DNA of 64,000 nt from Gordius albopunctatus (GCA_964276515.1 OZ193910.1:2480001-2544000), one strand, 5' to 3'. Positions 10,064 to 46,199 are shown, counted from the first letter of the stretch. Translations and numbers: made by a program. Notes: generated by a model from the letters alone, not told the origin.

Positions 10064-10746
10064 TAAAACTATTAACCCGCACAACATAATTTGTTCAACC
10101 TGAAAATTTTTTGTATTAATGTCAACGCGTATTTACTTTAATAAATTTTAAAGCCTGTATCTTCTACTGGCCTCCCACATAGGATTTTCACAAAGGGTTG
10201 CGGGCTGACAATTTCAATTTATTTAACGAATTTTTATCTAATATATAATGAAGAAAAGCCAGCCGGGCCAAGCTATTATCGTAAAATTAGATATTTTGGC
10301 CAGCCCGGGTGGACACCTTAACAAGATTCGAACAATTCAGGCCTAATAAGATTATTTATATAGTGTATTACATTGTTTTGTAAATTATTTTGTCACTTTT
10401 CTATTGTATAATATCTATTAATCAAGTTTCTCACCTAAAAGAACGAGAAATAAATTTATAATCTTTCAAATAAAGAAATTATGTTAACAATTTTTAAAAT
10501 CATTATTTCGCATCTAGCAGTTCGGGTAGCTTTAATAATAATTCGGACATAGCCTGGGGGGACTCTTGGAAGGGTGTAAGCAGACCCGGGCGGGAAATTT
10601 AAGTATAAAATCGGACCGGGCCAGGATAAGGCAAATATTTCAACAAATCTGACTTCTAAAAAATAAGAGTTCTGTGTATAAAATATAAAACGTTATAAAA
10701 AGAACCAGGGGCGTACGTTTGCCTATTTTGGGGTATTGTTTTTACT

Positions 10747-13700
10747 AAACTCATCTATACTCCGTATAAACGTAGCATATTTGCTATGGAATTTATGGGT
10801 GAGAAAGGTGGGAAGGGGCGAGAATGCCTATGGTGGGGGAGGGGGCAATGATCAAGCCGGGAGTCAGATAATACTCGTACAACGTTGTTATTGTTTTTCC
10901 AAATCTTCTTCTTCTTTATCAGTTATTTGGTCCCACATTGGTGGGGTTTGTTTTGATGAGTCTCTTCCATCTTGACCGGGTTAGTGCCATGTCTTGACTA
11001 ATCTCTTTAGTTTCCATAACTTTATCGACTTGCATTTTCCACGTGACACGTGGTCGTCCTCTTCCTCTCTTCCCCGGTATTTTCATGTCTAGCACTTTTC
11101 GATTTACGTCATCCGGGTCCCTTCTTAGTATATGCCCATACCACCTTAGCCGATTTTTGTTAATCATGTCCGCCATAGGTTGAATACCCATTTTTGCCAT
11201 GAGAAAGTCATTCGTCATATGGTCGAGCTTAGTATACCTCAAGCTCCACCGTATCATTCTCATCTCCGTGGCTTGTAATAGCTTTCCTTCCGTGGTGTTT
11301 AATGCCCATGTTTCACTTCCATAGAGTAACAACGGTCTTACGATGGATTTGTAAGCTTTGCTCTTCAACCATATTGGAATTTTCTTGTCGCACATTACAC
11401 CGGATATACTTCGCCATTTAACCATCATTTTTGAATCTGGGCATTGACTTCCGTTGCGCAACCTCCCTCTTGATGTAGCGTCGAGCTGAGGTATGTGAAC
11501 CTGTCTACTTTTAGGTACTTTAGGTGGTCATCCAGCGATGGGGTGCTTGTACCGTTCATTTCCATGTATACAGTTTTTCGATCGTTGACCTTTAAACCAT
11601 ATCCAGCTAAGCGCTTTGACCACTTTTCTGCTTCTTCGAATACCTTCTCCCTTGTTTCCTCGCATAGTACTATATCATCGGCATATAGCATACACCATGG
11701 CGATGGCTTTTGAAAGTCCCTCGTTATCGTGTCTATAACTATATTAAATAAAAAGGGACTTAAAGCAGAGCCTTGATGTAATCCAATATTAATCCGAAAA
11801 GGTTTAGAGTCTCCAACTGTCGTTCTAACGCAAGAGTTTGAGGCTTCATAGATATTTTTCATAAGCCGTATATATGCGTCAGGGATATTTTGTTTCCTCA
11901 GGCACCACCATATTAAATCGGGGGGGGGGGGACCGTGTCATAAGCTTTCTCCAAGTCGATAAAAACCATATGTAGGTTTTATCTTTTCACCATACTTATC
12001 CATCATTTGTCTCAGGGCTAGGATTGAGTCGATTGTGGATTTGCCGCCTACGAATCCGAATTGATTAGCCGATATTTCCACCTCGCTTCTTAGCCTTGTT
12101 ACTAAGATCCTTTACAAAAGCTTCAAGGAGTGGCAAGTTAGCTTGATACCTCTGTAATTGGCGCAGTCCTGAGGGTCTCCTTTGTCTTTAAATAATGGTA
12201 TAATCGTGCTTGCTCTCCATTGATTAGGGATTCGCTCTTCTACCAATATCTTGTTAAGGAGGTTCGTCATGGTGGTGACTCCTTCTTCACGACATCCGAG
12301 AAATGCTTCCATATGTATTCCATCTGGACCATTTGCTTTTCCTTTTTGCATCTTGTTCATTTGTGTCCTAACTTCATCCTCCTGAAAGAGTTCGACCATA
12401 TTTATATTTGGCTCAATTTCGGGAAGGGAATCCTTGTCATTTGTAATATTCATAAGTTTCTTAAAATATCCTTTCCACCTTTCCATCACTTCCTTCGGCT
12501 TGAATAAGGTTTGACCCTTCTCGCTTTTGACTATTTTAAGAACTCCGACATCTCGACTTTTATTCTCCCTTATCTTGGCCAATTTGTACATAAGCCTATC
12601 GCCCCCTTTATGATCCAGTTTTTTTGCCATCTCGGTGTACGCAGCATTCTTCGCTTTTGCAACGGCCTTTTTTGCGGCCCTCTTTGCGTCCCTGTACTCT
12701 TGATGATCCTCCGACTTTTTTGATTTATGCCACCGTCTATATAGATTTTTCTTTATTTCGATGAAGTCTTTAACGGATTGATCCCACCACTATAGTTCCC
12801 TATTCATAGCCTTGCCTCCTTTGGTCTGTCCTAGAACACAAATCGCTGTTTCCTTAATATCCTTAGATAGCGTCTCCCAATCTTCGTCTACGTCCCTTTG
12901 CAACTTCCTTGCACCCAAGAGTGAGGAGGCTTTTTGATGGTATTCTTCGTTCATCGACGTATCCTTTAGCCTTTCGTATTGAATTCGAGGTTCATGTACC
13001 TTTCTTCTTTCAGGAAATACTCTTCTGTCAAGGTCCATAACAAGGGGACGATGTTGCCTGGCTATTTCTTCTCCCGGTATCACTTTGCAATCCTTGATAC
13101 TCCATAAGTCCTTTCACCGTATAAGCAAATAGTCGATTTGACTAAAATGCTTCCCACTTCTATATGTCACAATATGATCTTCGCGCTTTTGAAAATAGGT
13201 GTTAACGATCGACATGTCATATGCTTGGGATACTTGGAGAAGTTTTTCCCCTTCTTTGTTCTTCAGATAATGCCCATAGCCTCCATGATTGCGTTCATAC
13301 CCGAGGCGATCTTTCCCTACGTGAGCTTTGAAATCGGCCCCAATAATTAGCCTTTCTTCCTGTCGGATTCCTTGTATTTCCTTTTCCAATGATTCGAAGA
13401 ATATGTATTTCTCTGATTCCGAACACCCAATTTGGGGAGCATACGCGCACATAACGGTTAGGAGGCCCCCTTGATCGGCAATCTTCACCCACAATAGCCT
13501 GTCGGAACAACGTTTGACTTCCACCACCTTGTCCTTGAACGATTCGCTTAGAACGATACCGACCCCGTTTCTAAGATTTGGTGACCCACTGTAGAAAAGC
13601 TTGTATCCTTCTCCTAATTCTCGAGCATTCGTTCCGTTCCACCTCGTCTCTTGTAGGCAGGCGATGTGTACCTTTCTTCTTTTTAACATCTGTGTGACCT

Positions 13701-14213
13701 CGATGCTCTTCCCCGTCAACGTTCCCACATTCCAGCACGTAATTCGCATTCTTTCCACAACTAGTTTCCTTAACCGCCTTTGTTGTGAGTTAGGCAGTAA
13801 CCCTAGTGTATTTTTCACATTGCACGGGCGGGGTATGCAGTGCGCGTCGTTTGTGGAGGACGCCCTAGCCTTTTCTTGTAAAATCTCGTTTGAATTGTTT
13901 TTCCAAATATACTATTTAATTTGCCTTAATAAATAAAATAATAATAAATGTTTTATTGCAGTTTAATATTACGAAAATTTAACTTCTTAAATATTTTTAT
14001 GCAAAAAAACTAAGTTATCACTTTGCATTTTATTCTTTATTTTGAGGAATAGGTTTTCTTTCATTTATTGTTTATTATAACCTGGTTTTTATTGCCTTAT
14101 CTCAAATTCTAAACTCAGAAAAATTATTATTTATGGGGAAGGGAACGCAAATGGTATGACCTTGGAAAAGCCAATAGTCATCCTTCCAAAACGTACTACT
14201 TTAAATTGAGAGT
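10747..14213 (-). mobile_element. Inverted partial copy of the DINE-1/HINE-like family, split by the RTE LINE
   Basis: 10747-10839 is the reverse complement of about 15722-15814, and 14133-14213 is the reverse complement of about 15485-15565. Confidence 0.6.
10905..13893 (-). mobile_element. RTE-clade non-LTR retrotransposon (APE endonuclease + RT), near full length, inactivated
   Basis: WNVGTL, CLQETRW, AYAPQ, SQIDYLL (APE); NYRGIKL, NQFGF, FIDLEKAYD, GLHQGSALSP, YADD (RT); LLYGSETW, EMRMIRW, RLRWYGH, RGRGRP. (GAA)n 3' tail. 15-bp TSD ATTGTTTTTCCAAAT at 10890-10904 and 13894-13908. In-frame stops and frameshifts. Confidence 0.96.
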
Positions 14214-14466: not shown

Positions 14467-15870
14467 ATTGCTATGCAATTTATAGGCTCGCCTTTTGTTG
14501 TCCGTCCGTCCAACGTTCCTGCTGGTTCGATACCCAGAGAGGGCAAATTTTTTTTAATTAAATTAATATATTGTTCTTGTTAATACCATTGATAATATGA
14601 CTTTTTGACCTTGTCCTGGCTACTGACCAATGAAAAAATGACCATTGGCCAAATTGTGAATCGAAAGTTTTTTTTCCGTTTTTTGAATTGGTATATTAGA
14701 TTAACATTGATAATTACCTATGCCCCCTTCTACAAGGGCCTATGCTTCTACTGATATGGGTCCCTGTGCCCCCCCCACAAAGGCCTATGCCTCTACTGAT
14801 GTGAGTTCGAATCCCGGAGAGGGCAAATTTATTTTATTTTTTTCATTAATATATTGGTCTTGTTAATACCATTGATATATGACCTTTTGACCGTGGTCTG
14901 GCTACTGACCAATGGAAAAAGGATCATTGGCGAAATTGTGATTCGAAATTTTTTTTCGTTTTTTTCGTCTCTTATGTATTTATATCCTTTTTGATCGTGT
15001 CCTGGCTACTGACCAATGAAAAAAATGAGCATTGGCCAAATTGTGAATCAAATTTTTTTTGTTTTTTTTCGTCTCTTATGTATTTATATCCTTTTTGACC
15101 GTGTCCTGGCTACTGACCAATATAATTGATATGACCATTGGCCAAAGTGTAGCAAATTTTTTTTATATATTTCAAATATAGGCTATTTGGCCGTTTGCTG
15201 ACTACTGACCAATAAAAAAACGACCACTGGCCAAAGTGAGATTGAAATCGATTATTTTTTCTAGAATATAATTATAGGCTAGTTATTTGGCTGTCTGCTA
15301 ACCATTAGAAAAAATGACCACTGGCCACAGTAATGGAAAAAATGTCAATGGCCAAGGTCTGATTAGAAAATTTTTTCGTTTTTTAATATCTTGTTTATAC
15401 TATACATTTGAATAGAGTCTATAGTCATAATTCAAATTATGGGTCGCCTACATCAAATTGTTAAAATTTATACAGTATCAAAAAAACTCTAAATTGAAAG
15501 TTATACGTTTTGGAAGGATGACTGTTGGCTTTTCCATGGACATACCCTCTATTTGCGTTCCTTTCGTCATTTTGATTAACTTAGAAGTTGATAATTAAGA
15601 ATGAATGAAAATCTATTTCTCAATAAATAGAGTATTAATAAGTGTTTTATAGCAGATTTTACAAAAATTTAACTTTTTAAATATTTGTATAAATAATTAA
15701 CGAATCATTTTGCATTTTATACCCCCCCCCCTATAGGCATTCTCGCCCCTTCCCACCTTTCTCGCCCATATGCATAGCAAATATGCTACGTTTATACGGA
15801 GTATAGATGAGTTTCGTTCCCCCTTCCCTTCTCTTGTCCTCCTTGCCACCAGGGCCGAAGGCCCTGGTCT
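14467..15870 (+). mobile_element. DINE-1/HINE-like (Helentron-associated) non-autonomous element
   Basis: 5' subterminal TTGCTATGCAATTTATAGGC, then (GTCC)n, central tandem units GGCTACTGACCAAT...GACCATTGGCCAAA, a 3' inverted partner GCCCATA..TGCATAGCAA (about 15764-15780) and a terminal hairpin AGGGCCGAAGGCCCT (15851-15865). Confidence 0.6.
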
Positions 15871-18465
15871 ATCTATCTATCGCGATTGAAACTAATGCAA
15901 GTTTTTTTTAAAACTCATTAGGAAGCGCACTCCATTTTCCCATTTTTCACACTCAAAATCGGCTGAAATTGGACTATCTTAAAATCATGGAAAAATCCTA
16001 TTCTGGGGCTGGATGAGCCATGACTTACTTTTGAAAGGATATCACGCAAAAAATATTCGGGAAGGAGAGCCGCTGATTTCCATTATGCCAGCTAACATTC
16101 CATCAACGTCGAAGGGAGGAGTAAATTTAATTTTTGCCCCTTTTGTATTTATATTGTGTAAAAGTTTCATGGGTATAAGGGGGGGGGGAATGATATTTTT
16201 TGTAATTAATTATTATTTCGATGAATATATATAAGAATTTATTATCAGTTTTCAATTTGGTAGTGAGTTTGAGAATTGCAAGCATTTTTTGCATCTAGAT
16301 GAAAGCAGACGATAGATACTGAAAGCTTTAAACTTATAATTTAATTTATCGTAAATTTTTTTTTAACGATTTCATCAGATTTATTTAATATTTATTAATT
16401 GCGTTTAGCATATATCATGACGTTTTATTGAATTAAATTACCTGCTCCGATTTGATTCCATTTTGATGCTAATGGCTTTAAACTTTACGAAGGCAACTGC
16501 CCCCCCCCCCCCAATCCTATTTAAAAAGACACATAAATTATATGCTGCAAAAATTGTAATTTTACCCATCCCTAAGGTCTTGTTTTAATATCGGATTCAG
16601 ATTTAAATCGCGCGAATTTATCTTTGTCTAGATATCCGATTCCAAACTCGGTTGTAATTATTAATATATTGTTTTTTGATAGTTAAAAACGTTTTTTGGT
16701 TTATTTAAACTCTTGAGATTAAATCTAAACTTTGCTGATACCTAAAAATTTAAAAACATACAACATTTAAGCTTAGGAAAAATTTGCATCTTACAAAATC
16801 GCTGTTATGTTTTGGGTCTGAAATGTAAATCTGCTGTGAATTCGAAGTTAAGACACAGCTATGTCATAACTCGTACAACGATTTTTGCTGCGCAGTAAAA
16901 TCCGATATTAAGACAAGCCCTAAGATATTACTTAGCTTTTTGCCCCTACACTCGCTTACACCAGCCTGATGTTCTTTAGAAAAAAATTGGACAAGCCTTA
17001 GATTTCCGCTATCTACTCAAAACCAAATTATAAATTCAAGAATAATATACCTTCAAAATATTAAAAATTGGATACTATTATTTACATATTACGTATTTTA
17101 AAATTGATTCGAAACACATAAAGGCTATTCCATGTCGAATGGTCAAAAGAAACGATTTTGATCGACCATCTCTGATTCTGATAATTTCACTGGTCAACAA
17201 ATAATGGACTTGTGAAATTAACCTGCAAAATATTTGCAGATTCTGTTAGAGTTTTTCACTGTGAACACAAATATGTTTGTAGTTTTTTCCCTATACGTCA
17301 AGTTTTTTAAATATTCGCTGTCAAAGTTGCCAAAAACGCGATTTTAGCGTTTTTCAGACGTAAATAACTTGCAAATTAGTCGGTAAAAATTTTATTTAAT
17401 AGATTAAATACGTAGAGATTGGGGAGAGGAATGTATTTACAATCTTTTTTTATCGTAGCACTTTTACTTTTTAAATTATATACAAAATTAATTATCCCTA
17501 TCTTTTACATTGACAAATTACACCAGACTTGAGGGCGCCCTCCTTTCTCTTTAACACTAGGAATTAAGTGCGTGTTGTTGTTTATCTACTCTACTACTAC
17601 TATTACCCCCTTATTTTTTACGCTCGTGGGGGGGGGGGGGGGGTAAACCCCCCCTCTGCTGAGAAAGAGGGTAAAAAAGAAGGGGGGGGGGAAATGAGCC
17701 TGTTCGATACCAGGGTTTATATCAATCAAATCTGCCAAATGCCCGGTTACTTACATCTCTCTCAACCAAGCAACCATAGCTGCCAGTGATATCAACCGGG
17801 TTATTAACCAGCATGGTGCTGGTTATGATGATGGTAATGGGCGAGATATGGTAGTAGCATTTTGGCATATTAACAACACTAATGGTAAGTGATGTGTGCC
17901 TATTACCAGGTTTAGCACTATACAAGCAGAACCAATTCGAGTCGATTGTTATCACTAGTTTTATTTAGAGATATAAATGAAAATTAATATCTAAAAAATG
18001 AGTTGGAACGACTTTCTAATTTGTTTAAATTATTATCCCTGAAAAGGGGTTTGAAAAATAAGCTTTAAATGCTCATTTGTTCCTCCGCACGGAAATGTTT
18101 AGTAAAAGGCGAAACATTTGTACGATTTGCGTTGAAACCGAGTTAACAACTTCTCTTAAAAACGTCTCTTTTTTATACTACCAAAATGGTATAAATGTTA
18201 GGTGTTAAAGAAATATGTAATCTTTATTTCCTTATGAAGCTTTAAAAATTATGATGTTTTCCCCCTATATATACAATGTAAATTTAAATGCAAAAGACCA
18301 TAGATGTTTTTAGTTGCGGCCCATAGCTCTTAAAATATTAACAACCTCTTTGAATATGTCACATCCGCTAGATGGCAGCAGCGTATCACTTTACCGTTAC
18401 GCAGATTAATTCCTACCTGTTAATGCTTCAAGTGTTTTTATGTTTACATTTATATCACTATTGAC

Positions 18466-19468: not shown

Positions 19469-20020
19469 TTTTAAATTAAAATTTTACGAACAGAACTTTT
19501 TATTGATGATTAAATTCAAAATACATAAAAATAAGGTATAGCAATTTTAATAGACCTGAAATAAATATAAAATTTTATTTGACCAATTCCATATTATCAT
19601 ATAAAAATAATAAAGAATCTTGTTAACGATTGAAAACGGTCGAATCTTTTGAAATAAAATAAATTATATGCTTTTCAAATTTTTTTTTTAATTTTGTGAT
19701 TTCAGCGAGAGGTTTTGTAACAAATTTTTCAATTGTATTTTTAGCTGAAGTTTTTGGAATACATTTATGATGCAAAAGATGGGAACTAGATCGGATCGGA
19801 TCAACATTTTAATTTTGGAAGTCAGATAGGATCGGATCAACATTTTATTTTAGTCGGATCGGATTTTCAAATTTAAAATAAACAATAAAAAGTTCTATGG
19901 AATTAGTCAAACAAAATTGTATATTTATTTCAGGTCTATTAAAATTGCTATACCTTATTTTTATGTATTTTTAATTTAATCATCAATAAAAAGTTCTGTT
20001 CGTAAAATTTTAATTTAAAA
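19469..20020. repeat. About 125-bp inverted repeat pair
   Basis: 19469-19592 matches the reverse complement of 19896-20020 with few mismatches. The spacer contains GGATC-repeat sequence also found at about 9115-9185. Confidence 0.8.
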
Positions 20021-20044
20021 ATTTGGGATCGGATCGGATCGGAG

Positions 20045-20736
20045 TATGTATGTATGTATGTATGTATGTATGTATGTATGTATGTATGTATGTATGTATG
20101 TATGTATGTATGTATGTATGTATGTATGTATGTATGTATGTATGTATGTATGTATGTATGTATGTATGTATGTATGTATGTATGTATGTATGTATGTATG
20201 TATGTATGTATGTATGTATGTATGTATGTATGTATGTATGTATGTATGTATGTATGTATGTATGTATGTATGTATGTATGTATGTATGTATGTATGTATG
20301 TATGTATGTATGTATGTATGTATGTATGTATGTATGTATGTATGTATGTATGTATGTATGTATGTATGTATGTATGTATGTATGTATGTATGTATGTATG
20401 TATGTATGTATGTATGTATGTATGTATGTATGTATGTATGTATGTATGTATGTATGTATGTATGTATGTATGTATGTATGTATGTATGTATGTATGTATG
20501 TATGTATGTATGTATGTATGTATGTATGTATGTATGTATGTATGTATGTATGTATGTATGTATGTATGTATGTATGTATGTATGTATGTATGTATGTATG
20601 TATGTATGTATGTATGTATGTATGTATGTATGTATGTATGTATGTATGTATGTATGTATGTATGTATGTATGTATGTATGTATGTATGTATGTATGTATG
20701 TATGTATGTATGTATGTATGTATGTATGTATGTATG
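20045..20736. repeat. (TATG)n microsatellite, 692 bp (173 units)
   Basis: Read directly; no interruptions seen. Confidence 0.98.
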
Positions 20737-21774
20737 TTTTTATGTAAGGGGTAAATTCTGAAAATACCGGCCTGATTCGCGCGAAATTTTACACGTAGGT
20801 TCCCAGGGCGGCCAGGGGTAAAATAGCTTTTTCAGATTCCTAAAATTCCTTTTAGTTTTGAAAATATCGGACATTTCCCGGTTTTATACGTTTTGACGTT
20901 TAATAAAATGTCAATCAAACGCAACCTCATGACGTACTGCGTATCCCTCGTGTTCTTTGGAAATTTGAATATACAGTTCTTTAGTAAAAGTGTATCATCA
21001 CTTATAGTATTTTCTAGACCGTCATGCGTGTAGCTAGTATAGTGTGATAAATGAAGGCATGTGCTGCGGAAAATGGAAACATTTTACGATTTGAAATATT
21101 AATTTAAAGTCATTTTTTGCTTATTTTTCACGTCAATTATTATTATAGGACGGTCGTGTCCCCTCCTGCGTGGCTAAATAAATTAAAAAAATCTAATTTT
21201 GATATTTTTTGCGTGTTAAATAAGGGGGAAATGAAAATACTTTTAACAATGTGCCAATAAATGTTGATATATCTCAGTTCTTCGGACGTTATTAAGTTCA
21301 GAATTAAAATTTTTATTCATAAACAAATAATTATAATTATGATATTGTTTCTCAATTACAAAAAATTTAAAAAAATTGCTTGAAGGGCCAGGGGCCAAAG
21401 ATTTTTCCCTTGGGGGGGGGGGGGGTGTCATGGGGCCAGGTTTTCTCTCTTGGGTGGGCCTGGGCCTTGGACCCTTTTTAACTATTTGTTTAAATATTTT
21501 TGCATAATAAACACTTACCAATTATATTTGATATATTCTTAATCTATTATACGGAAATAGAACAATAGAAGTAGACAATAACCGCTTTATCATCATATAT
21601 GCCCTAAAATTCCAACATGATTTAATACATCCGGGTAAATGGCAAAACAACGTTTTCCCGGGTTCATCTAGTATTAGATTAAAAATCACATGGTGATTCG
21701 ATTTCAATAAAACGTTTTATTCTATATTTTCGTCTAAAAAAGCTTGCCCGCTTTTCATTTAATATTATACCAAC

Positions 21775-26635: not shown

Positions 26636-27880
26636 TCAGGAAAATATGTCGAGATCGTCAAAAGTAAAGCACGACATAAGCTGTTTGAAATTTTTCCTGA
26701 ATTGTGGATCCACGAGAAGGTAAAGATAGAAATTCAGGCTGTGATTGCAAAGTTCAAAATTGTTAAATATGTAGGTTAGTAGGCGTGTAATACATGGAGG
26801 TTTTTCACATTCAGTCCACCAGGGGAAAAGGTGCAACACAGACATAGTTGATATGGGTAAGATAAATACGACGTATGAAAAGACAAAAGAGAACAGCAAT
26901 AGTAAAATTCGCTTATCTTTGCCCACTCTATCCGGAAAATATCTAATGCCACCACCATTTAATTCTGTACCTTGTTTAGAACTTCGAATACTACCCGAGA
27001 AAGTAACCTTTTTCTCCGTCGTTTTAGGATCAATAAAAGACACTATCTTACTTTGTGGCAACTTAATAGTTGTGCTAATATTCTCAATATTCAGATCTTT
27101 GATTTGTAGGCTCGTGGTTGAAATGGAATTATTAAAATAATACTTACGGAAAGCTTTGAAAAGCTTTATGTTGACGTAAAATATGACGAGACAAGGGAGA
27201 ATTGTTTGAACAAGTTCTAAGAACACACTATAAACATAAATCCATTTTCCATGGTATTTGACGCCAAATTGGTGTCTGTAGATCTGTTTAAAGACGTCGT
27301 AGCATGGAACTACGTTGTAATTGAAAGCTGTAGGAACGTTTAAGGCTAGTGAAAAGAGGAAACAAAACCAAGGCAAGTGTTTTATTAACCTATCACCGCA
27401 CCATTTAACGTATGTGCTTATTTTGTAAAGGTAAAAGTATCGTTCTAAGCAAACTAGCACTAAAATGAGCGTAGAAGTCTTCATTAAGGAATTCAAGAGC
27501 GTGAGATGAATCTTGATCCTAAACCATTCGTGTCCGTAGGCCGTAGCCAGTGTCCAATTTAATTGGCTCCCACGATTTGTTATTGGGTAGCAGATGTACA
27601 GGATACAAACTAAAAGATCAACGAAAGAAGCGCATTTCATGTAAGCCATACTTAAACTTTTAGACATGTCCCAAAAGATCAGGTAGTTGCAGATATTACC
27701 AAATATGCCCAGCGTTATGAGAATTGGCGATATTTTGCCGTATATGATTAGTTCGTAATTCGCAGTCAAGTGCGTCAAATTATTGCAATAACTAACTGAA
27801 TGTAAATACTGTACGTAAGTGACGTTCATATTGTAGAGCTTTTTATGTTGCAACAAAAATTGTGTTTCACTAAATATCAA
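26636..27880 (-). CDS. Intronless 7TM GPCR, paralogue of 3038-4273
   Basis: Same GIFGN, CLERY and NHSLNFYLY motifs; colinear and highly similar to the + strand copy. The ORF track start is TTG, so the likely ATG is 27829 (MNVT). Confidence 0.88.
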   Translation of the reverse strand: MIFSETQFLLQHKKLYNMNVTYVQYLHSVSYCNNLTHLTANYELIIYGKISPILITLGIFGNICNYLIFWDMSKSLSMAYMKCASFVDLLVCILYICYPITNRGSQLNWTLATAYGHEWFRIKIHLTLLNSLMKTSTLILVLVCLERYFYLYKISTYVKWCGDRLIKHLPWFCFLFSLALNVPTAFNYNVVPCYDVFKQIYRHQFGVKYHGKWIYVYSVFLELVQTILPCLVIFYVNIKLFKAFRKYYFNNSISTTSLQIKDLNIENISTTIKLPQSKIVSFIDPKTTEKKVTFSGSIRSSKQGTELNGGGIRYFPDRVGKDKRILLLLFSFVFSYVVFILPISTMSVLHLFPWWTECEKPPCITRLLTYIFNNFELCNHSLNFYLYLLVDPQFRKNFKQLMSCFTFDDLDIFS

Positions 27881-28998
27881 GTTTATACGTAGGTTAAATT
27901 TAGATAAAGAGATAAATTATTATTAGGCTAATGAATTAAAAATTAAGGTGATGGCACATAGATCATTCCCCTAGTAGTAAAGAACGGGTGATTTATTATT
28001 AAATCATCCATGAATATTCATTAAATTATAATTGAAAACACCCAATTTACTGTCCGCACGCATGCATATAATTAAATTATAATAATGTTGCTGATATAAA
28101 TATATTATAAATTTAATTATAATATAGGATTATTAGCCAAAACAGAACCGGTTTTGGCATGCCTTTAATTCGAATCTTTAATCTAACCTTACGTATTTAA
28201 CAATTTGATCAATTATATATTAAGCATTGCAATTTTAATTAATTTTATAAATGATGTAAACATATATGCTTAATCATTTTTATAAATATGTTGAGGTCTA
28301 TTAGATTTTTAATGTTCAAATGATTAATTCCATGTAGAAAAAGATATTTAATTATAAGCGGGTTATAGAGTAAGTTAATTAGAGTTAAAGATGAACATAA
28401 TTTTGATGTATTAACTAATCTTAATTTAATATGATTTTTATTTGCACCCTGGAAATGCAATTTATCGGAAGTTAGTAAATATAATAACTAGACTAATGCT
28501 AACATACATTTATAATTTATCAGGTATTCGTGTATAAGCATTTTTAAATTTGTGTATTACAAAAATAATATAAAATTTACTACTAAATTAATACAAAATT
28601 GCTTCATTAACGAAATAATATATTGAAGTAATAAATAACTCTGTGAATATCTAAAACGTGAATTCATCATTACTCCATTAACCGAATGGCACGATTCATT
28701 AGTCACAAATTAATAGTTATGATGAGGCATGATAGTGTAAAAGATTTCGCAAGATAATGATTATATTTGTTTAAACCTAAGGTTAAGACTACTATACTAA
28801 CCTTTTTAAGCCAATTTAATAATAATAGCAACTAACTATAGTAAATCGATTATTTAACTAAATTGAAAAAATAAGAAAAGCGACGTCATTTTGGTTTATT
28901 ATGAATTCTGAAAATTATAATCTTTTATAACTAACTGAAAAGTAAAATATTTTAAGGTTTAAATCATAAATAAATTTGCAAGAGCTTGAAATGGCACT

Positions 28999-35465: not shown

Positions 35466-38400
35466 ATGTCGGATAACCCAGGGAGCTCGTGGGTTAGCGA
35501 GGGAGAACCTGAAGTTTCGTTCAGTAAGATGAGCATATACAAAAACGTGGTAGTTCTCAGCACCGCTTTTTTTCTCCTTTTTGCCGCGTTTCAAGCCGTT
35601 TCTAGCCTACAGACCAGCATCAACAGCCAAGAAGGTTTGGGATCGATTTCTCTCAGCGTCATATACGCCTGTCTCATAGTGTCTTGCCTGCTCCTGCCCG
35701 AATTAGTCATAGGTAAAGCCATGTGGATTTTATTCGGGCCGAGCCCAACATTTCAATTTGCCCAATCCGAGTCTGAAATGTTTTTTTAGCCCGACCCAGC
35801 CCGGCCCTATTTTCTTAAATTGAAATTTTATGCAACTTTAAAATTGGAAATTATTAAAACCTTATAAATATAGTATGAATTTAATTGTTATTGATTTGTA
35901 ATTTCAAACAACAAAACGCTGAAAATAAATTTTATTTCAAATTTAACACTCTAACACTGTAAAATTAAATTTTATAAGCGGCAAGAATAAATAATCTTTA
36001 TGAGCTATTACATTATGCCTATGAGTGTACATCATTTAAAAATATTAAAAAGCTTTTCTTAACTTTATTGAAACGTAATCAATTTTTTTGACATAATCGA
36101 ATATCTATTTACCTCTCAGGCTTTTTAACGATCAAATGGACCCTGGTCCTTTGCATTTGCTGTTACGGAGCATACATTTTCGCGAATGTGGCACCCTCTT
36201 GGTACACTCTCATGCCCACCTCCATCATGGTCGGATTAGCCGCCGGCCCCCTATGGACCTCGGAAAGTACTTATATAACGGAAATGGGTACTCGGTTAGA
36301 TTCATTTCAACCCGAGGCTGCTGCGAAATCGGGCGTTTCTTTACTGTTTGGAATATTCTACTGCTTTTTTCAAAGCGGGGCCATACTCGGTAATCTGATT
36401 TCCTCCATGACTTTGCAAACGGGACAATCCCGAGCATTTTCCATCGATTTTGAACCGGTATGGGTTTACGAATTGCGAGCCCCTTCGTGCGGAGGCAATT
36501 ATTGCCCTTCTAAGTTGATGATGGCTAATTCTACACTTAATAATGACACGTCCAGAGAAGGGCTGACACCTTCAGCCTCTAAAATATACCTTCTATGCTC
36601 CGTGTATACCGGAATGTCCGTAGCCGCAGCTCTAATTATAGCCCTCTTTTTGAAAAATTATTCCCCACCACGAAGCAATGGTTCGGCCAACGAAGGTTTG
36701 CAGTCGTCAGAAGTACAAAAGCTTCATGGTATAAGATTAATTACAAAATATAATCTTTAATTAAAAAATGCGCTAGGATTTGTGAAACATCTTTAAAATG
36801 TCGGAATCATTTATGATAAACTTATTTATAAATTGAAGACAATGTGATTAATGGAACCAATTAGCCCTTTTAAACTCTTATTTGCTGGAATTTAAATTAG
36901 TTTTACATTCTCCGGGCCATAATGTAATTATAGAAAAGGTATATACTAAAATAGGTAGGGCTAGAGATTTCCATGGGTCGAGCCTAAAAAAGGTGCGGCT
37001 TCCCCCTCTAGATCCAAACATTTGTTAAAATGTATTAAAATTATGGCTAAAATTTCAAAAAATGATTATTTTGCCCCTCCCTAAATCATGATTGCTACCC
37101 CTCTAATTCCAGTTTAGGTAAGATTATTTAAATTTAATGATGCTGAATATAATCATAGTCTAAACTCTAAAGAAAGTCAATAAATCACCTAAACTCAGGT
37201 CTAAGGCAAATATTCAAAATTTGGACAAATACTCTGATATATTTTTGTTAAGTTATTGAAAAATTCATATTTTTACACTACACCTATTAACTTTAATGAT
37301 TTTTTGAAATATGTTATGGGTCACCATTAAAACCAACGAGAAAATTATCTTGTCAAAATCTTTTAAGTTCATCCTGCCTTATTCCTACTGCTTGAGCTTG
37401 TTTTATATTATAGAACATGTTCAAAAATTAACGATTCATTACCACCTCTTTTAGCATCGGAAATACTCGAATCAATAAAATTAGATAACCTCTCTCTCCC
37501 CCCTCTATAAAATCAATAGTTTTTTCCACGCACGGGGTAATATATCCTTGCCTACGTGCTGGTTCGATACCCGGAGAGGACAAATTTTTTAATTAATATT
37601 TTGTTCTTGTTAATACCATTGATAATATGACTTTTTGACCGTTTCCTGGCTACTGACCAGAGGTCAGATTTGTTGGAAATTTTCTGCCCGAACCCGGCCC
37701 GACTAAATTTTTTAACTTCATTGCCCGCCCGAACCCATCTAAGTGTCCGCCGGGGCCGACCCGAATTGTTAAAGCTGCCCGAATTGCCCGGCCCGAAATA
37801 TTAAATTTTTCCGTTAGTCCCGAATTTATGAGGTCCCAAAAAGAGGTCGGAGTAGTTAAAATTTTTCTGACCGAACCCGGCCCGGTTCAAATTTTTAACT
37901 AAATTGACCGCCTGAACCCTTCTAAGTGTCGGCTCAGCCATGCCCAAACCATTAGAGCTGCCCGGCCTGATTAATAAAATTTCCCCGGTAGACCCGAAAT
38001 TATCCAATCCCAAAATCTTTTAACCACTATTACAAAATAAGCATTAAATTAATGGCATATTGATCCAAACAAAAATGACAATATTTTATTATTCATAATT
38101 ATTATGTAAAAATAACAAATCGTCTGCAATTTCCGGGGATAATCTTGTGCGTCTTTCCTCTATTAATCTTCCTGCGATAGAAAAACTTCTTTCACTAGCA
38201 GCACTCGTTGCCGGGATGGCAAAGAGTATTTTTGTTTACCTTGCTAATTTTGGATACCTAAAATAGTTATAATTTTTAATAACTTTAATGTGACTTGTTT
38301 GCTTTATTTTTCCACCGTGTTTTTTTAGTTAGAAATTAAATGAATTACAATTATGCGCATTGTTAGAAAATGGTATGAGCCTTTGTTTTAAGTCTAGATG

Positions 38401-41400
38401 GCACACATGTGTAGTGTATTGCGAACAATGAAATGGCTTTGGCTACATAAATATAAATGATCCAATCCTTTCCATAATGGAGTAGGGCAAAGATTTAACT
38501 GAACGCGATAAAAATGTAATAAAATAATTTACTACCAGAGAGTAAAATGGTTTCTTCCATAGTATTAGATTAGAGTAGCAGTTTACATGGGCGTAGCCAG
38601 CATTAAAATTAGAGGTGGCAATAATGATTTAGGGAGGGGCAAAATGATCATTTTTTGAAAATTTAGACATAATTTTAATACATTTTAACAAATTTTTGAG
38701 TTTAGAGGGGGCAGCTGCCCCTTCCTGCCCCCCCCCCTTGTCTACGCCCATGGTAGTTTAAATCGTTGTGATTTTATTCTTTTATAATATAATCTGAAAA
38801 TTAAAAATTTTTGATCTTGAGACAAACCAGTTAAACTAATTTATTCGAAATAAAATTTAATTTTGAAGAAATTAAAATTAGGACATTATATAAACATACA
38901 ATGAAGATTTAAGCGATAGAAAAAATCTAGTCAAATTTATTATGGCCCAAAATTGTTTATAAGCGAATTTTTCTTTTTTCAAGGAAAATTAATTTGATAA
39001 AATTTTGGGCATGCCCGAATCTTATCAGCGTGCCCGTCCGGGCCCGCCCGAAAATTAAAATTTAAGGCAGTTGCCCGGCCCGTGGGCCGGGACGGGCGGG
39101 TCTGGCAGCGAGCCGGGCATTTCTAGTCTCTGCTACTGACCAATGAAAAAATGACCGTTGGCCAAATTATGAATCGAAATTTTTTCTTTCCATTTTTGAA
39201 TTGGTATATTAGGTTAAAATTGATAATTACCCTATGCTCTCCCCTACAAGGGCCTATACCTCTACTGATATGGTTCCCCCTGCCCCTCCACACAAAAGCC
39301 TATGCCTCTATTAATGTGAGTTCGAATCCCGGCGAGGGCAAATTCTTAATTGCTGGTTCAATACCTGGAAAGGACAAATTTTTTTTAATTATATGGAAAA
39401 TTTGTATAAATAATTAACTAATAATTTTGCATTTTATACCCGCCTATAGGCATTCTCGCCCCTTCCCACCTTTCTTGCCCATAAATTGCATAGCAAATAT
39501 GCTAATTATTATCCAATCATGGACGTTAGGCAGCCATGATTGGACCTGTGGGTTCTTGCAGGGCAAGCCTGCTATCGCCCACAAGGTTTATTATTAATAA
39601 ACTAACACTATATATGACCATATGATATGACGTAACGAATAAAAGTTTTGGCGAAATTTTGTGATATAAAGTATATATAAGGTGAATAGAAGGTGCTATA
39701 TATAAAGGTGTAAGATCGCGAAATCCAAAAGAGCGAGCGTAAAATGGTGGTAATTTTTTATATATCCGCGTAATTTTAATGCGCGATTGGGTTAGATTGG
39801 TTCTGGATCTTTGTTCACCGGAATTTCGCCACCTGCCCATGTGTCCCAGTCGAATAGTTCGTCCTCTTCCTCTTAGATATCGGGGAACAACTGGCCCTCC
39901 AGCGGGATACCTGCGATAATGGATGTAACCGTGTAACGTTCTGGTTGGATCCAGGTGCGTGAGGCGTAGTCGGCCGGATTGTCATCGGTTGGCGTCCATT
40001 GCACGTTTTACCTGATGGCTAGGAGGGCGTCCAGGCCGTATTCTTTTACGAATCTTGAGATGAGGTCCTCGATGGCCGGGGAGTTGGAGCCGCCCTTCAT
40101 CAGGACGTAGTAAGCGGTTGATGAATCGGTGCGGATGCGAGGAAAGGGATGGCCATCTTTTTTTCCCCCCAGGTATCCGTATAGTGCTCCGATGGTTTCT
40201 GTGAGCGTGATGTGGGGGTTGTCGGGAAGGGTGTAATTCATGGCTGTCGCAGCATCCGCGAATTTGATTGAAAATTTTCTGTCAGGGCAGAATATTCCGA
40301 TATGTTCGTTTGACGCATCCGTATAGATGGTGATATCAGGGATAATGCATAGGGGGATGAGGTGTTTTAAGGATTCGATGATGGCGAATAATTTGAAGCA
40401 TGCCGTATTCATATTGAACAGGCGAGAGCGGTTCGAGAGGTATGCATAGAACGGAGCTAGCAGCTTCGACATGCCGGTTAAGTTGTACAGAAAATAATTT
40501 AAGACGCCTAAGGCCTCTAAGAGGACTTGTGTGGGGGGAGCCGTGTTAGTGGTCCACGTGTAAAAAAGGATGTCGGAGGCATATTCAAGTCGCGTGATAA
40601 CCTGCGGCGTACACCGAATTGAATGGTCCTCGAATGATATTTGGAGTACCAGGTATTCTATGTCCCTTTCAGGGAGTAGGGAGGACTTCTGGGCATTGAC
40701 CGTGAGACCCCATTCTGCGGCCAGTGAATAGATTGATTCTAAGTCCTCCTGGACATCCGTGTATGAATCTCCGTAGATCAAGATATTGTCAAGGTATACA
40801 TTATATTTGCACCTGGTGACTGCCTTGGCAGTGAGGTCTGCTACGATCATTTGGAGTACATAGGGGTAAAAGGATGCCCCCATGGGGAGGACTTTGTAGC
40901 GGAATTTCCGTGTTAGGAATGTGTAAGCGGTGTATTTTCGGGCCGAGACGTTAAGCGGTATACTAAAAAAGGCGGCCTTGAGGTCAATTTTGTCGGCGTA
41001 GAACGCTCGGCTGAGTTGTCTTGACGTCAGAGATATTGATGCGAGTTTGATGGGATAATGGACAAAATTCTTCGATACTTGGTATAGATCTATTAATACA
41101 CGGGCGTCGCCGTTGGACTCTGGAATAAAAAAAGGTTGCCGATTTTACTATTTAAGGATGTCGGAGGCATATTCAAGGCGCGTGATAACCTGCGGCGTAC
41201 ACCGAATTGAATGGTCCTCGAATGATATTTGGAGGCCCAGCTATTCTATGTCTCTTTCAGGGAGTAGGGAGGACTTCTGGGCATTGACCGTGAGACCCCA
41301 TTCTGCGGCCAGTTAATAGATTGATTCTAAGTCCTCCTGGACATCCGTGTATGAATCTCCGTAGATCCGGATATCGTCAAGGTATACTTTATATTTGCAC

Positions 41401-44091
41401 CTGGTGACTGCCTTGGCGGTGAGGTTTGCTACGATCATTTGGAGTACATAGGGGGAAAAGGATGCCCCCATGGGGAGGACTTTGTAGCGGAATTTTCGTG
41501 TTCGGAATGTGTAAGCGGTGTATTTTCGGGCCGAGACGTTCAGGGCTATGCTAAAAAAGGCGGCCTATACTTTCAGACAATGATCGACGCAGGTGTGGTG
41601 GAGGAAACCTCCGGAGAAATAGTAAAATCGGCAACCTTTTTTATTCCAAAGTCCAACGGCGACGCCCGTGTAATAACAGATTATCCAATCATGGCTTTTA
41701 GGCAGCCATGATTGGACCTGTGGGTTCCTGCAGGGCAAGCCTGCTATCGCCCACAGCGTTTATTATTAATAAACTAACACTATATATGACTATATGACAT
41801 GACGTAACGAATAAAAGTTGTGGCGAATTTATGTGATATAAAGTATATATGAGGTGAATAGAAGGTGCTATATATAAAGGTGTAAGATCGCGAAATCCAA
41901 AAGACCGAGCATAAAATGTTGGTAATTCTTTATATATCCGCGTAATGTTAATGACTTTTATACGGAGTATAGATAAATTTCGTTCCCCCTTCCCCCCCCC
42001 CTTCCCTCGAGGGCCGAAGGCCCAAGTCTCATTATTACGGATTGAATAACACAATAAATTAAGTTAGGTTGAATGTAAAACTTTGTCTAAATTCGCTACT
42101 TATTTTTCCATAGGCGTCAACGAAGAGAAGAAAAATAGGATGGGCGACGAATCTCCTGTTTTATGGGAAGCTAAAGATGATAATTCCTTGGTTGCCAAAA
42201 CAAGAACTTGCTGCAAGAACCGCTCCACTGGCAAACCCATAAATGTATTGGATATGTGTTTCGCGACGGTCAGACAAATGCGCGACCCACGACAAGTACT
42301 ACTTATCCCTTTATCCATGTACAGCGGACTCCAACAAGGCTTTATGGCGGCCGATTACACCAAAGTGAGTGTGCGATACACTTTAATCCCAGTGAAAATT
42401 CTAAAAAAAACTTGTTTTTAGAAGGATTTTGATGAGAATTCTCCGTCTAATGTAGCTTGATATAAAGTTGAGTCTAAATCCATCTGTGTTCACCTATGTG
42501 TTTATCTTTAAGTGACACAAACATTTTATAATGTCAAAGTCAAATTATATAAACCTGTTCTAGTAACCATATATAACGAGGAGGATGTAATGTAAAATCA
42601 TTAAATATATTAGATTTACAAGGACAAGGTCATAAGCATTGGATGACACTAAAAAGGAGCCAAACGACCGTTTAATTTTTGAAAAACGCTATGTATTAAA
42701 ATGTTGCTTCACTCTGCTTAAGACATCCAATTTATTTTGTATCAAATTGACTCTAAATATGTTTGATGATGCAACCAATTCACTTTTAGTCTAACTTAGC
42801 TACTATTGCCCAAAGCCTCCTTCATCAGTTATTTTAGGCCTACATAACTCTTTTTACTCTGACACCACTTGAAAGTCTATATGGGTGGGATTTTTTCCTA
42901 ATGAGTAGTGACTTGACACAGCCTATAGTGCAAAACCCAACTAAAATATCCACTAATTTAAAAATTTGATCATAATTATACCCGCTAAATGTCACAACAT
43001 ATTATTGTTAGTTCGACCATTAGCCCAAGTGTGGATACAGCGACTTGAAAGAGCTCTGATAAATAACCGCATTGCAGCTTTACTGGCTTAAAAACTGCGA
43101 AAAACTACCTAATCTCTCAGGACATATGTTTAATTTTGTTTTGTGTAATGAATGTTAAACTCCTCACTCCATATAATTAAATCACAGTTATATCACTTCC
43201 ATTATGTCACGCAAAATTATATCTTAAATTTCTATAACTCCTTAAATCTGTTTTATGATCGTGTAAACAAAGTTAATGCATTGAATTAATTTTATTTTAT
43301 ACTTTCAGTCTTACGTGACTTGCATATACGGAGTCAAATACATAGGATTCACCATGATGGCTTATGGCATAGTGAATGCCTTAATGTCACCTACATCAGG
43401 CTACTTAAACAAAAAAGTTCCCAGATGGGTCCTGTTCGGAACCGCAGCCATTTTACACTTTTCCATTTTTCCCGTTCTCGCCTTTAGGACCGTGAAGTTT
43501 GCTCAAAATTTATATCTCGTCTTCCTAATCGCAGGTCTTTGGGGAGCGTTCGACGGAATATTGCAACCCCAAATTAATGGTGATGGTTTTAACATTTAGT
43601 TATTATATCATTATAAATTTATAGTAGTTTTGTAAAAACTGCTGGGATTTGTTTGGTCGACCTTTGGTTTTAATCGACTAAAAATAAAAAAATAAAAGAT
43701 TTTTTGGTCACTTTTTCTTCGTCGGCCTCTAGGCTTTATTGATATTAAAAAAAGACCAGAGTAGACCACTAATCTTAGTTAAACCAAAGGTTGACCAAAC
43801 AAAATCCAGCCGTTTTTACAACAGTAATTTATAGTATAATCAAATATTTTTGAAATAGCTTTGTACGGTTCAATATTCGTGAAGAATCGCGAGCCTGCTT
43901 TCTCAAATCACCGTTTGTGGGAATCCTTGGGATTTATCATGAGCTTTGGCTATCACGATTTATTGTGTATTAGGTCTAAATTGTTTGTTCTGTTTGGATT
44001 ACTACTAATTTGCTGTTGCACATACGTATCGGTGGAAATACTTCAAAAAGTAAGAGAGAAGAATATGCCAGCTGACGTTTTAGACAGGTAA
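35466..44091 (+). CDS. UNC-93-like MFS membrane protein (UNC93A-like); exons 35466-35712, 36120-36728, 42114-42364, 43309-43579, 43859-44091
   Basis: KNVVVLS.AFFLLF.AFQ..SLQTSIN, GL.AGPLWT..TYIT, FFQSG.I.GNLISS, CGGNYC, LLIPL.MYSGLQQGF..ADYTKSYVTC, AFSNHRLWESLGF. GT-AG junctions are phase-consistent. Confidence 0.92.
37658..39132 (-). mobile_element. hAT non-autonomous transposon nested in the HINE-like copy
   Basis: CAGAG...CTCTG ends; exact 8-bp TSD CTACTGAC (37650-37657, 39133-39140); CCCGA/GGCCCG subterminal repeats. Remnant at about 38100-38260 reads ILFAIPATSAASERSFSIAGRLIEERRTRLSPE. Confidence 0.9.
38586..38752. mobile_element. MITE, CATGGGCGTAGCC-TIR family, nested in the hAT
   Basis: TIR CATGGGCGTAG / CTACGCCCATG; flanks GCAGTTTA/GTAGTTTA (8-bp TSD, 1 mismatch). 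Confidence 0.8.
39508..39781 (-). repeat. Terminal direct repeat A of the RT-RH element
   Basis: About 17 mismatches over 274 bp versus 41680-41953 (hand count). Confidence 0.92.
39792..41153 (-). pseudogene. RT-RNase H polymerase reading frame (5'-truncated, one frameshift, two in-frame stops)
   Basis: SATFFIP.SNGDARVLIDLYQVSK, IDLKAAFFSIPL, FRYKVLPMGASFYPYVLQ, YLDN (YLDD in the duplicate at about 41373-41385), IYTDAS, HITLTE, IRTDSSTA, WTPTDDNPADYASR. Confidence 0.85.
41680..41953 (-). repeat. Terminal direct repeat B of the RT-RH element
   Basis: As repeat A. Contains minus-strand TATATAA, AATAAA and two adjacent stem-loops. Confidence 0.92.
43625..43826. mobile_element. hAT-type MITE (second family) in UNC-93 intron 4
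   Basis: Long imperfect TIRs TAGTTTTGTAAAAAC / GTTTTTACAACAGTA; exact 8-bp TSD ATTTATAG (43617-43624, 43827-43834). Related copies at about 35275-35370, 52247-52437 and 58225-58320. Confidence 0.82.
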
Positions 44092-46199
44092 TTAGTTTCA
44101 ATTGTCCAACATTTAATCTTGTTAATAGTCAACAGAATAGTCATTCCGAGTGATTATTGGGCTTGCTATTGTATATTATCGCCAGGAGTACTTTTAAGAT
44201 TTGTGATTTTTTTGAATATATTTTTACCCCACAACTGAAACATTTAAAGCCCTATATTCTTTTTAAAGGGTATTTAATGCTCATTTATTACAATGCAATA
44301 CATTGGTACCATTTATTTAACTCTAAGCACAATCGCTTTATTGATTTATACGAATCTTTATTTAAATAATGGCCATATTCCAATATCTAGATTGTATGAT
44401 TAATAAAGCTTCTGATTATTGTCTATTTTCAATTTGTATAGGATTTTGGTGGTAATGTATTATTTTACCTATGAATTGAAAAATTTATTCTTATGAAATA
44501 AAACTAGGACCAAGTGATTGTTTGTAGAAATCTGTAGGGGAAGGGTTTTAATGAGATAATCAATTCCTATTTCATAATTTGAAATATGAACGTAAGATTT
44601 CACAATCTAGTTTTAATTAAAATATATTAAAATCAAATAATCTATATTATAATTAATTGATTTTGACAACTCCCACCAGCAGCGCCCTTAGTAAGCTTAC
44701 GTCTTAACGAGGAAAGATTAGATCAAATCTTGAAAAATGAATTGTCTTTTGTTTTTAAATGACAATATTAAATTGTGATTCCGGAAATAAATCGCTATAA
44801 TATATGCCATATTTTAGTTACATCTTAAACATTAAGGCCTTATTATTTCACAAATAAAAACATTTAAGCAGTGAAAATTTTTTAAGCCCTGTTAATTAGG
44901 GCCACCTGTGTGGCTTAATTTTAAATTGTTGAATGCTAGCTGGGTGCTGGCCGAGAAAAATATATATTTATGGCCCTGCGATTCAATTCTTTAGCCCATG
45001 CAGATTTTTGTTGGCATAAGAGCGGTAAGCATGGATTGAAACTCTAGTTATCAATCATTTCAAACCTAATCTATGTTTTTTGGCCTAGCTAGCTTTTAAA
45101 TCGTTTTCTCAAACAATATATCACAAAAAAAGATTAATTTAAAATTAATTAAAACCAGAAAAGTTATATCGTTAAAATAGACGATTTTATGTACCTAATT
45201 AGAATACTGGTATCTTTATGATTTGGATATCCCTCTATTCACACTTCCTCTTACTCTATTCACAGTCATTCTAATTTGAATATCTTACGGCGATTTAATA
45301 ATGTTATTCATATTAACCTCGATACAATGCGATATAAACTAATGTTTAACGATAACAGGACATCTTTGGGTTATTTATTAATAAAGTAGAAATCCTCTAC
45401 AATTTCTCATTTCCCGCTATCATATCAATTTAGGAAAAGGAATCACATAGGCGATATTATGATTTATCATTATTATATCACCAAAATGCTTTATCAAACC
45501 TTAATTTATATATTTTTATGGCTGTTATCGTTACTTTTCAAAAGCAGCCGTTATTACCACTATCTCCAACCCTACTTGCTAAAGTAGTGCTTTAGAGCAA
45601 CATCATTAAAAATTATAAACGTTCTACAATTTATTGTAGGAATTTAAAATTTTAGACTAATATCGATAATTTTAATAATAATATATTTTATTCAAATTAA
45701 TTATTAAAAGTATCACATGGGTAAAATACATTGGTAAATAAAATACTACAAAAGAAAACGCGTTAAAAACTAATTGGATGGCATTGATCCGTGTATGGAA
45801 ATCGTGTTGGATTTGACGATTTCCATAGTGATCTTTTGCCTGATGTAGAAGAATTCTTTAGGTTCTTTTTATATTTTTAAACAAGATGAAATTTATATTT
45901 GTACAGGGTGCGATTTAAGTATGAGGAATAGGAATAGAGGGATATATCGGGCCGGGAAAGGATAAACCTTGCACCCCAAAAGGAGACATACTTTTCTTTC
46001 TTTTTTTACATCCTCTATATATTTTTATTAAGAAAAATCACAAAATAAAATAACGATTGAAATATAAAAATTATCGATACGATAACACGTGTATATCAAA
46101 TTCACTGATGCGTGTTGATAGAAATAACAAACACGTACAAGCGCGTGGTAAGGGGGGTAAGTCACACACACGTAAGTAAAATAAAATGTAAAGGAAAAG

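Follow-up and report, generated by a model that had tools for sequence, protein, structure and literature searches.

HEART retroelements were reportedly described by Gong and Han in 2018. They form a grade of non-viral relatives of hepadna- and nackednaviruses, and hepadnaviruses are proposed as their descendants in PMC12691608. Their mobilisation is given as unresolved in the cited part of Kojima 2025 (PMC12440569). The 64-kb stretch of Gordius albopunctatus DNA analysed here (the window) held a 2.45-kb insert (39505-41953/41954) with a reverse transcriptase (RT)-RNase H gene on the minus strand. The insert belonged to a multi-copy family. This family is distinct, inclines towards the hepadnaviruses and ends in a defined structure. 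It is likely a new lineage of HEART-grade retroelements and not an endogenous hepadnavirus.

VIPER/TATE elements probably carry RT/RNase H as their last open reading frame (ORF). Their ORFs encode Gag, a tyrosine recombinase (YR) and RT/RNase H, and this RNase H groups with hepadnaviruses in the cited part of PMC6681497. In our literature searches, no family like that of the insert was described in hairworms; the original HEART description, outside their scope, may bear on novelty. Repbase or Dfam may already list the family, unnamed or as DIRS.

Layout, copies and terminal repeat of the element

Read on the minus strand, the insert opened with R (41953-41680), followed by the inverted RT N-terminal piece and the duplicated part of the RT core; the main RT-RNase H frame came next, and R closed the insert (39781-39505) (Table 1). 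The R pair (39508-39781 and 41680-41953) was 274 bp long with 93.8% identity. The main frame was uninterrupted for 378 aa (41144-40011) and matched Pfam RVT_1 with an E value of 2e-20. It had in-frame stops at 40010-40008 and 39875-39873, and its terminal stop was located at 39794-39792, 10 nt ahead of R. This agreed with the original prediction, made from the sequence alone, of a minus-strand frame ending about 10 nt before a 274-bp repeat. The motifs quoted there were also present in the sequence, but YLDD was not the catalytic motif of the main frame. The main frame had YLDN, and YLDD was confined to the duplicate and the relatives. The inverted piece matched residues 87-123 of the Gordionus protein P0160 (tblastn, E 9e-5). 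The copy was dead, 5'-truncated and rearranged, with no evident function. Its 5' genes were missing because of this truncation. Since the copy was truncated and rearranged, the lack of an integrase or recombinase was shown only downstream of RNase H, and a recombinase may lie upstream of the RT, as in VIPER.

Other copies were followed in contigs from two public runs (X1 and X2) of one study, in which summed depth was not copy number. The whole frame was covered by contigs at 80-95% identity. The junction between the RNase H tail and R was spanned by four of the 16 pieces examined (of 331), with 12-27 differences. This meant that the RNase H gene was joined straight to R in the window copy and in at least two others. 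The same junction in other copies bore out the earlier claim that no room was left downstream for an integrase, methyltransferase or recombinase. Most paralogous contigs differed from the window within both internal stops, and therefore the stops were not family traits. The duplicate/main junction was crossed by an X1 contig with 0 differences, with 30 nt on the short side. Two X1 contigs left the element exactly at 39505 into other flanks (12 of 94 loose ends were examined), which suggested that the element had a fixed linear end at this position. At the other side, contigs of 890-950 nt ran approximately 465 nt beyond 41566; therefore, other copies retained more 5' sequence.

R began 10 nt past the stop codon, and its end contained three hairpins. 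The first was a 7-bp stem with AATAAA, the second had a stem-internal loop-stem form, and the third was a terminal stem of 11-14 bp. RNA folding of the last 100 nt of R gave z-scores of −4.99 for the lower copy and −7.26 for the upper copy, and none of 200 shuffles was as stable. The first 100 nt were unstructured, with a z-score of 0.28. The terminal hairpins also folded as single-stranded DNA. The ends of R had no TG..CA, and no purine tract was found ahead of R. In an Rfam scan of 39000-42200, nothing reached the gathering score, and no hammerhead or other catalogued RNA family was found in R. The middle hairpin was considered for a role like that of epsilon, but this was dropped in view of its symmetric loop and its location at the 3' end. 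The upper R may be either a genuine terminal repeat, in line with the start of R 10 nt past the stop codon and its TATA-like motifs from +18, or an additional copy of the 3' end that was truncated. Summed contig depth was several-fold above that of the frame at 39514-39555 (terminal hairpin) and at 39703-39744 (a second patch of R), and 39569 was joined to 39821 by one contig in each run. Short non-autonomous derivatives retaining the hairpin end may exist.

The internal duplicates were compared to follow the history of the copy. The differences were 17/274 for the R pair, 19/413 for the duplicate and 3/65 for the inversion, and these values were homogeneous (p 0.63). The duplicate and the main frame differed in 16 codons, with 6 synonymous, 8 non-synonymous and 2 nonsense changes, and neutral decay fitted these counts (p 0.24). 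The simplest reading was one formation event followed by decay. An assembly artefact was ruled out because the duplicates were approximately 5% divergent and had their own stops.

The insert interrupted a high-copy host repeat. Empty paralogous sites of this repeat were found in the window at 15660-15900 and 10680-10840, and comparison with them gave a target duplication of 0-1 bp. This was consistent with the absence of a target site duplication (TSD) claimed earlier. Position 41954 was either a 1-bp duplication or the first base of the element. The flanks 39501-39505 and 41954-41958 were joined in many contigs of both runs (15 of 90 joints were examined), and these joints reflected other host-repeat copies rather than an empty allele.

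Table 1. Parts of the insert and of the interrupted host repeat (window coordinates)
Feature	Position	Strand	Remarks
3'-terminal repeat R	39505..39781	-	Element end at 39505; TATA-like motifs from R+18; AATAAA at R+190
Three consecutive terminal hairpins and 7-nt AT tail	39505..39605	-	RNA fold z-scores against shuffles
Main RT-RNase H frame, 5'-truncated, two in-frame stops	39792..41153	-	RNase H end NPADYASR; acidic tail
Direct duplicate of RT 40566-40978, 413 bp, 95.4%	41154..41566	-	Two stops of its own; YLDD
Inverted RT N-terminal piece	41567..41681	+	65 nt overlap the main-frame start (93.9%); about 50 nt extend further upstream
Second R copy, 5' side	41680..41953	-	Ends 3 nt before the true 3' end; 2-nt overlap with the inverted piece
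Left part of high-copy host repeat (insertion target)	39132..39504	.	Paralogues at 14619-14829, 15680-15788 and 10773-10831
Right part of the same host repeat	41954..42060	.	Ends near the GGGCCGAAGGCCC hairpin

Relatives, phylogenetic placement and fold

Protein searches were performed to find relatives of the family. A word-indexed search gave one match. A HMMER scan of 1.84 billion representative proteins gave 7,748 matches at E <= 0.001. Three of these were close (E 3e-67, 3e-55 and 2e-27; 36-48% identity), and the next match dropped to 6e-20. All three belonged to Gordionus sp. m RMFG-2023 (Nematomorpha), and a further search brought the addition of six Gordionus proteins. After the Gordionus proteins, the best 150 matches were mostly DIRS-like. 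A third protein search gave no additional HEART-like rows. In the ESM Atlas, the two top clusters for the Gordionus protein P0002 (score 0.96, 3 members each) were mostly Euglenozoa where the phylum was known.

No family member was found in IMG/VR viral contigs searched with P0001, A1, P0044 and P0094, or in the prokaryote genomes searched. In metagenomes, 184 pattern matches gave 9 loci with 22-33% identity and no family member; the best locus, L021, was a Ty3/gypsy element. In the case of Pfam, no DDE-integrase or YR match was obtained in any family protein scanned. The hepadnaviral terminal protein (TP) profile gave no match in 13 family and RH-terminal proteins or in window 36000-46000 (control, E 5e-63), with a reach of up to approximately 130 aa of N-terminus ahead of the RT in Gordionus. 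No YR remnant was found near the element by tblastn with two DIRS YR pieces, which was a weak test.

The RH-terminal set consisted of metagenome proteins with an RT; the complete ones also had a terminal RNase H, which ended in NPAD-x-x-SR 3-56 residues from the C-terminus. The hepadnaviral profile PF00336 matched P0044, P0094, P0179 and P0184 of this set above the cut-off and P0049 below it. The RH-terminal proteins served as putative proxies for HEART, and several of them had motifs in common, by eye, with seven Ixodes HEART rows in the cited supplements of PMC12691608. Eleven RT proteins from metagenomes and run assemblies were also noted (P0023, P0027, P0044, P0049, P0077, P0094, P0157, P0161, P0172, P0179 and P0184). 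Many of them ended just after the NPAD RNase H, and several had long acidic or proline-rich N-termini and PF00336 matches. These eleven seem to represent a range of HEART-like elements that has so far gone undescribed.

Trees of RT plus RNase H (RT+RH) were built from two sets of 38 and 33 rows, hand-picked from 167, with P0016 (mis-cut) and P0004 (short) excluded. The hepadnavirus polymerases were taken from IMG/VR. The labels DIRS-like and Ty3-like followed Pfam matches to Dam, YR or integrase for some rows and motifs and trees for the rest. In the first tree (38 rows, LG+C20 with posterior mean site frequencies), the family had a support of 100/100. It grouped with seven of the eight RH-terminal proteins and four hepadnaviruses at 95/87, and DIRS plus Ngaro formed a clade at 98/99 with the family outside. 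The second tree (33 rows, a different alignment, partial rows excluded, LG+G4) gave a similar result. The family, three of the four RH-terminal proteins and the hepadnaviruses grouped at 96/94, and the family was the first to branch, with 88/60 for the remainder. The 17 DIRS rows formed a clade at 99/95, and the family was again outside. In approximately unbiased (AU) tests, grouping the family with Ty3 was rejected (p 0.043), and grouping it with hepadnaviruses alone was not rejected (p 0.30, 0.25). Nesting of the RT inside DIRS, named in the original prediction as a refuting outcome, was not obtained. Placement with 11 core DIRS1-like rows, a group chosen after the tree was seen, was rejected at p 0.015.

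The motifs were counted to compare the family with these groups. M in the P-x-G motif (PMG) was found in 4/4 family, 5/7 RH-terminal and 13/13 hepadnavirus rows, and in 5/116 DIRS-like and 3/27 Ty3-like rows. L at position +3 of motif B was found in only 2/116 DIRS-like rows. NPAD at the RNase H end was found in 23 of 160 proteins, namely 12 hepadnavirus, 3 family, 7 RH-terminal and 1 DIRS-like. The rest had another single residue (9), two residues (71) or no call (57). The terminal RNase H ending in NPAD-x-x-SR with no integrase after it, which is a Blubervirales trait, was found in the family. RT profile scores were 293 for RH-terminal, 261 for DIRS and 210 for Ty3, from profiles of different depth.

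The 378-aa open part of the window frame was modelled with a predicted local distance difference test (pLDDT) value of 91, from an input alignment without hepadnaviral rows. The model matched polymerase P of hepatitis B virus (HBV P) with a template modelling (TM) score of 0.72 and a root-mean-square deviation of 4.3 Å, which was the best among the named viral models. An unnamed 634-aa entry gave a TM score of 0.70, and caulimo-, meta- and retroviral (Ortervirales) polymerases gave 0.58 or less. The model of Gordionus P0002 showed the same pattern. The BFVD entry A0A3S9H6R8 carries an accession of a series that may hold nackednavirus proteins. On these models and motifs, the protein looks intermediate, with a DIRS-like RNase H body and a hepadnavirus-like motif B, RNase H end and domain geometry. 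The hepadna-allied lineage of the original prediction was thus in keeping with the two RT+RH trees, PMG, NPAD and the HBV P match, but a position as sister of DIRS was compatible with the data as well (p 0.196, 0.201). The hepadna-allied placement appears supported, not proven.

Explanations for the origin of the family

We give an even chance to a multi-copy HEART-grade retroelement without an integrase of its own, whose linear cDNA entered by host break repair. The gene-to-repeat layout, the target duplication of 0-1 bp, the three hairpins and the equal decay of the three duplicates were observed for this explanation. Transcription, priming and integration are proposed steps. The element would be transcribed by RNA polymerase II, with polyadenylation near the AATAAA of R. 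Reverse transcription would begin at the structured 3' end, giving a linear cDNA with the fixed end 39505. Template jumps during a single synthesis or repair event would produce the duplicate, the inversion and the second R. Host break repair would then ligate the cDNA without target duplication, into the host repeat within an intron of an UNC-93-like gene.

The family resembled HEART, as presented in the cited literature, in being an endogenous invertebrate RT element on the hepadnavirus side of the tree. It shared the short DIRS/long terminal repeat (LTR)-type loop in RT motif 1 and the aromatic-x-[LM]-Q after motif B. P0161, P0044, P0023, P0027 and P0077, which group with the family, shared by eye the PKF-x-LP, LHP-x-A/S-x-x-x-T and W-x-H-x-D of the HEART rows in the cited supplements. 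However, the HEART hosts in the cited parts are insects and ticks, whereas the relatives here were Nematomorpha, and a hairpin-ended terminal repeat was not described for HEART in the parts of the literature surveyed.

Several results weighed against a HEART-grade, hepadna-allied reading. By eye, the family had PMG and Y-L-D-D, whereas the seven Ixodes HEART rows in the cited supplements had PFG and W-x-[HY]-[LI]-D-N. A clade of the family with DIRS (plus Ngaro) was compatible with the data in the AU tests at the p values given above. The RT-only trees were unresolved, with the family unplaced and the hepadnaviruses elsewhere. The trees contained one partial Ngaro row and no HEART, nackednavirus, proto-nackednavirus, VIPER/TATE or identified PAT rows. 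Nackednavirus and proto-nackednavirus rows were missing because the IMG/VR motif scans gave 1 match (L030) and 0 matches, respectively. NPAD was not exclusive, since it also occurred in P0162, which was nested in DIRS. The RT profile score against hepadnaviruses was only 85. The RNase H profile scores, from profiles of different depth, were 84 for DIRS, 73 for RH-terminal, 36 for hepadnaviruses and 32 for Ty3. The RNase H was approximately 137 aa long, which is the DIRS length, versus 108-110 in hepadnaviruses, and PF00336 matched one of five family proteins bearing RNase H, with E 0.028. In the alignment, the Blubervirales RT signatures (FLVxKN with the long loop, SDG..RKxPMG and KxTP) were absent from the family, and only PMG was common. 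The viral fold library was without DIRS or VIPER models, and both compared sides were predictions. The four pieces bridging RNase H and R may be two copies seen in both runs, and both runs came from a single study. The 5' half of the element family was not represented in the sequence examined.

The main rival was a VIPER/TATE-like YR retrotransposon in an animal, with gag, YR and RT/RNase H between direct repeats and with gag and YR lost together with the 5' half. We consider this unlikely. The family shared with VIPER/TATE, as far as the cited part of PMC6681497 describes it, the hepadnavirus-like RNase H, the direct repeats, the lack of a methyltransferase and probably RT/RNase H as the last ORF. 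YR integration is also consistent with no target duplication, and the top Atlas clusters of P0002 were mostly Euglenozoa where the phylum was known. However, the same part of PMC6681497 leads one to expect split repeats A1..B1-A2-B2. In the window, the whole 274-bp terminus was repeated with nothing after it, and no B repeat was found by self-BLAST. VIPER was reported only from kinetoplastids in the parts of the literature surveyed, whereas this host was an animal. YR and gag were not seen in this copy, whose 5' half was missing, and the weak tblastn test gave no YR remnant near it.

The family could also be a long-branch sister of DIRS/PAT/Ngaro that lost its methyltransferase and downstream recombinase, in which case the grouping with hepadnaviruses would be long-branch attraction. 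This was judged quite improbable. The AU tests were compatible with it, most of the best 150 matches after Gordionus were DIRS-like, and the length and profile score of the RNase H favoured DIRS. The pre-RT segment of P0152 resembled the RT N-terminus of DIRS/LTR proteins, weakly (TM < 0.5). In these features, as in the internal motifs of the RNase H and the lack of target duplication, the family was like DIRS1-like, PAT and Ngaro elements. However, the DIRS clade excluded the family in both RT+RH trees, mixture model included, and PMG and L at motif B +3 were rare among DIRS-like rows. The R copies were direct, and the window copy had no inverted terminal repeats, no internal complementary region, no split repeats, and no methyltransferase or YR after RNase H. 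In the case of Ngaro and PAT, split direct repeats A1..B1-A2-B2 and a YR downstream of RT-RNase H were likewise not found.

The pararetrovirus of the original prediction was not supported. It was considered very improbable that the element consists of endogenised pieces of a true invertebrate virus of the Blubervirales that had a terminal protein and a core and entered the genome as rearranged linear DNA. HBV P was the best fold match and had the closest RT-RNase H geometry among the named viral models, and a group of the family and hepadnaviruses alone was not rejected. PMG and the RT followed by a terminal RNase H ending in NPAD-x-x-SR, with no downstream integrase, were also shared. The rearranged junctions, the lack of target duplication, and the TATA-like and AATAAA motifs inside the repeated stretch were consistent with such a virus. 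However, the family was without the RT signatures given in the cited part of PMC12691608 supplement 6 (F-L-V-x-K-N with a longer loop, S-D-G before R-K-x-P-M-G, and K-x-T-P), and its RNase H was approximately 28 aa longer. The TP profile was blank in the proteins and the region scanned, and IMG/VR held no relative. No TP, core, DR1/DR2 or circular genome was seen in the 5'-truncated copy. The family was multi-copy in chromosomes, and its dispersal in two hosts and its fixed linear end were a better fit to a transposon than to a circular genome.

Troyka was ruled out by its integrase, its CG..CG ends and its 3-bp TSD, as described in the cited part of PMC12440569, and an LTR retrotransposon (Ty3/gypsy) was rejected since its DDE integrase, TG..CA ends, polypurine tract, primer-binding site and 3-6 bp TSD were not found and the family with Ty3 gave p 0.043.

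The host locus and what the family means

The host repeat carrying the insert was located between exons of an UNC-93/MFS-like gene. The exons were found at 36092-36757, 42068-42418, 43285-43596 and 43840-44088, with Pfam matches for the first three, the second being weak. The repeat (39132-39504 and 41954-42060) was present in very high copy. Tandem units lay within it, together with a B-box-like GTTCGAATCC, and its terminal hairpin was GGGCCGAAGGCCC. Further paralogues were located at 14500-15890, 10680-10840 and 37557-37597. The repeat presumably resembles non-autonomous Helitron/Helentron-type elements. In run X1, two contigs left R at 39707 into nine letters identical to the right flank of the host repeat. 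These exits were either a deletion variant of the window locus or a separate insertion in the same host repeat.

The window contained genes with introns, and its CpG observed/expected ratio was 0.98; together with 7tm_1 genes, this suggested that the host is probably an invertebrate animal. Two similar long single-frame genes for rhodopsin-family receptors (7tm_1) were located at 3032-4270 (+) and 26639-27916 (-). An LTR-type integrase fragment (H2C2, rve) was found at 635-1861 (+), and a broken long interspersed nuclear element (LINE) with APE endonuclease and RT at 10922-13911 (-). A long TATG-type tetranucleotide microsatellite at approximately 20010-20760 had open frames in all six phases.

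Only a few HEART sequences are known, and these are damaged (PMC12440569). Tentatively, and with a probability clearly short of even, the family may be the earliest branch on the hepadnavirus stem. It would combine the absence of an integrase and a DIRS-length RNase H with hepadnaviral RT-RNase H geometry and motifs, a three-hairpin 3' start and spread by host repair. If this is true, the apparently intact Gordionus frames, which lie in a chromosome-level genome, would for the first time provide a HEART-grade element with defined ends and a testable mechanism. If an upstream recombinase is present instead, the family would represent an animal element of VIPER-like type, also a novelty with respect to the literature surveyed. 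With a family that is multi-copy, ends in a defined structure and has long open frames in a hairworm genome assembled to chromosome level, existing data would allow a test of how HEART moves.

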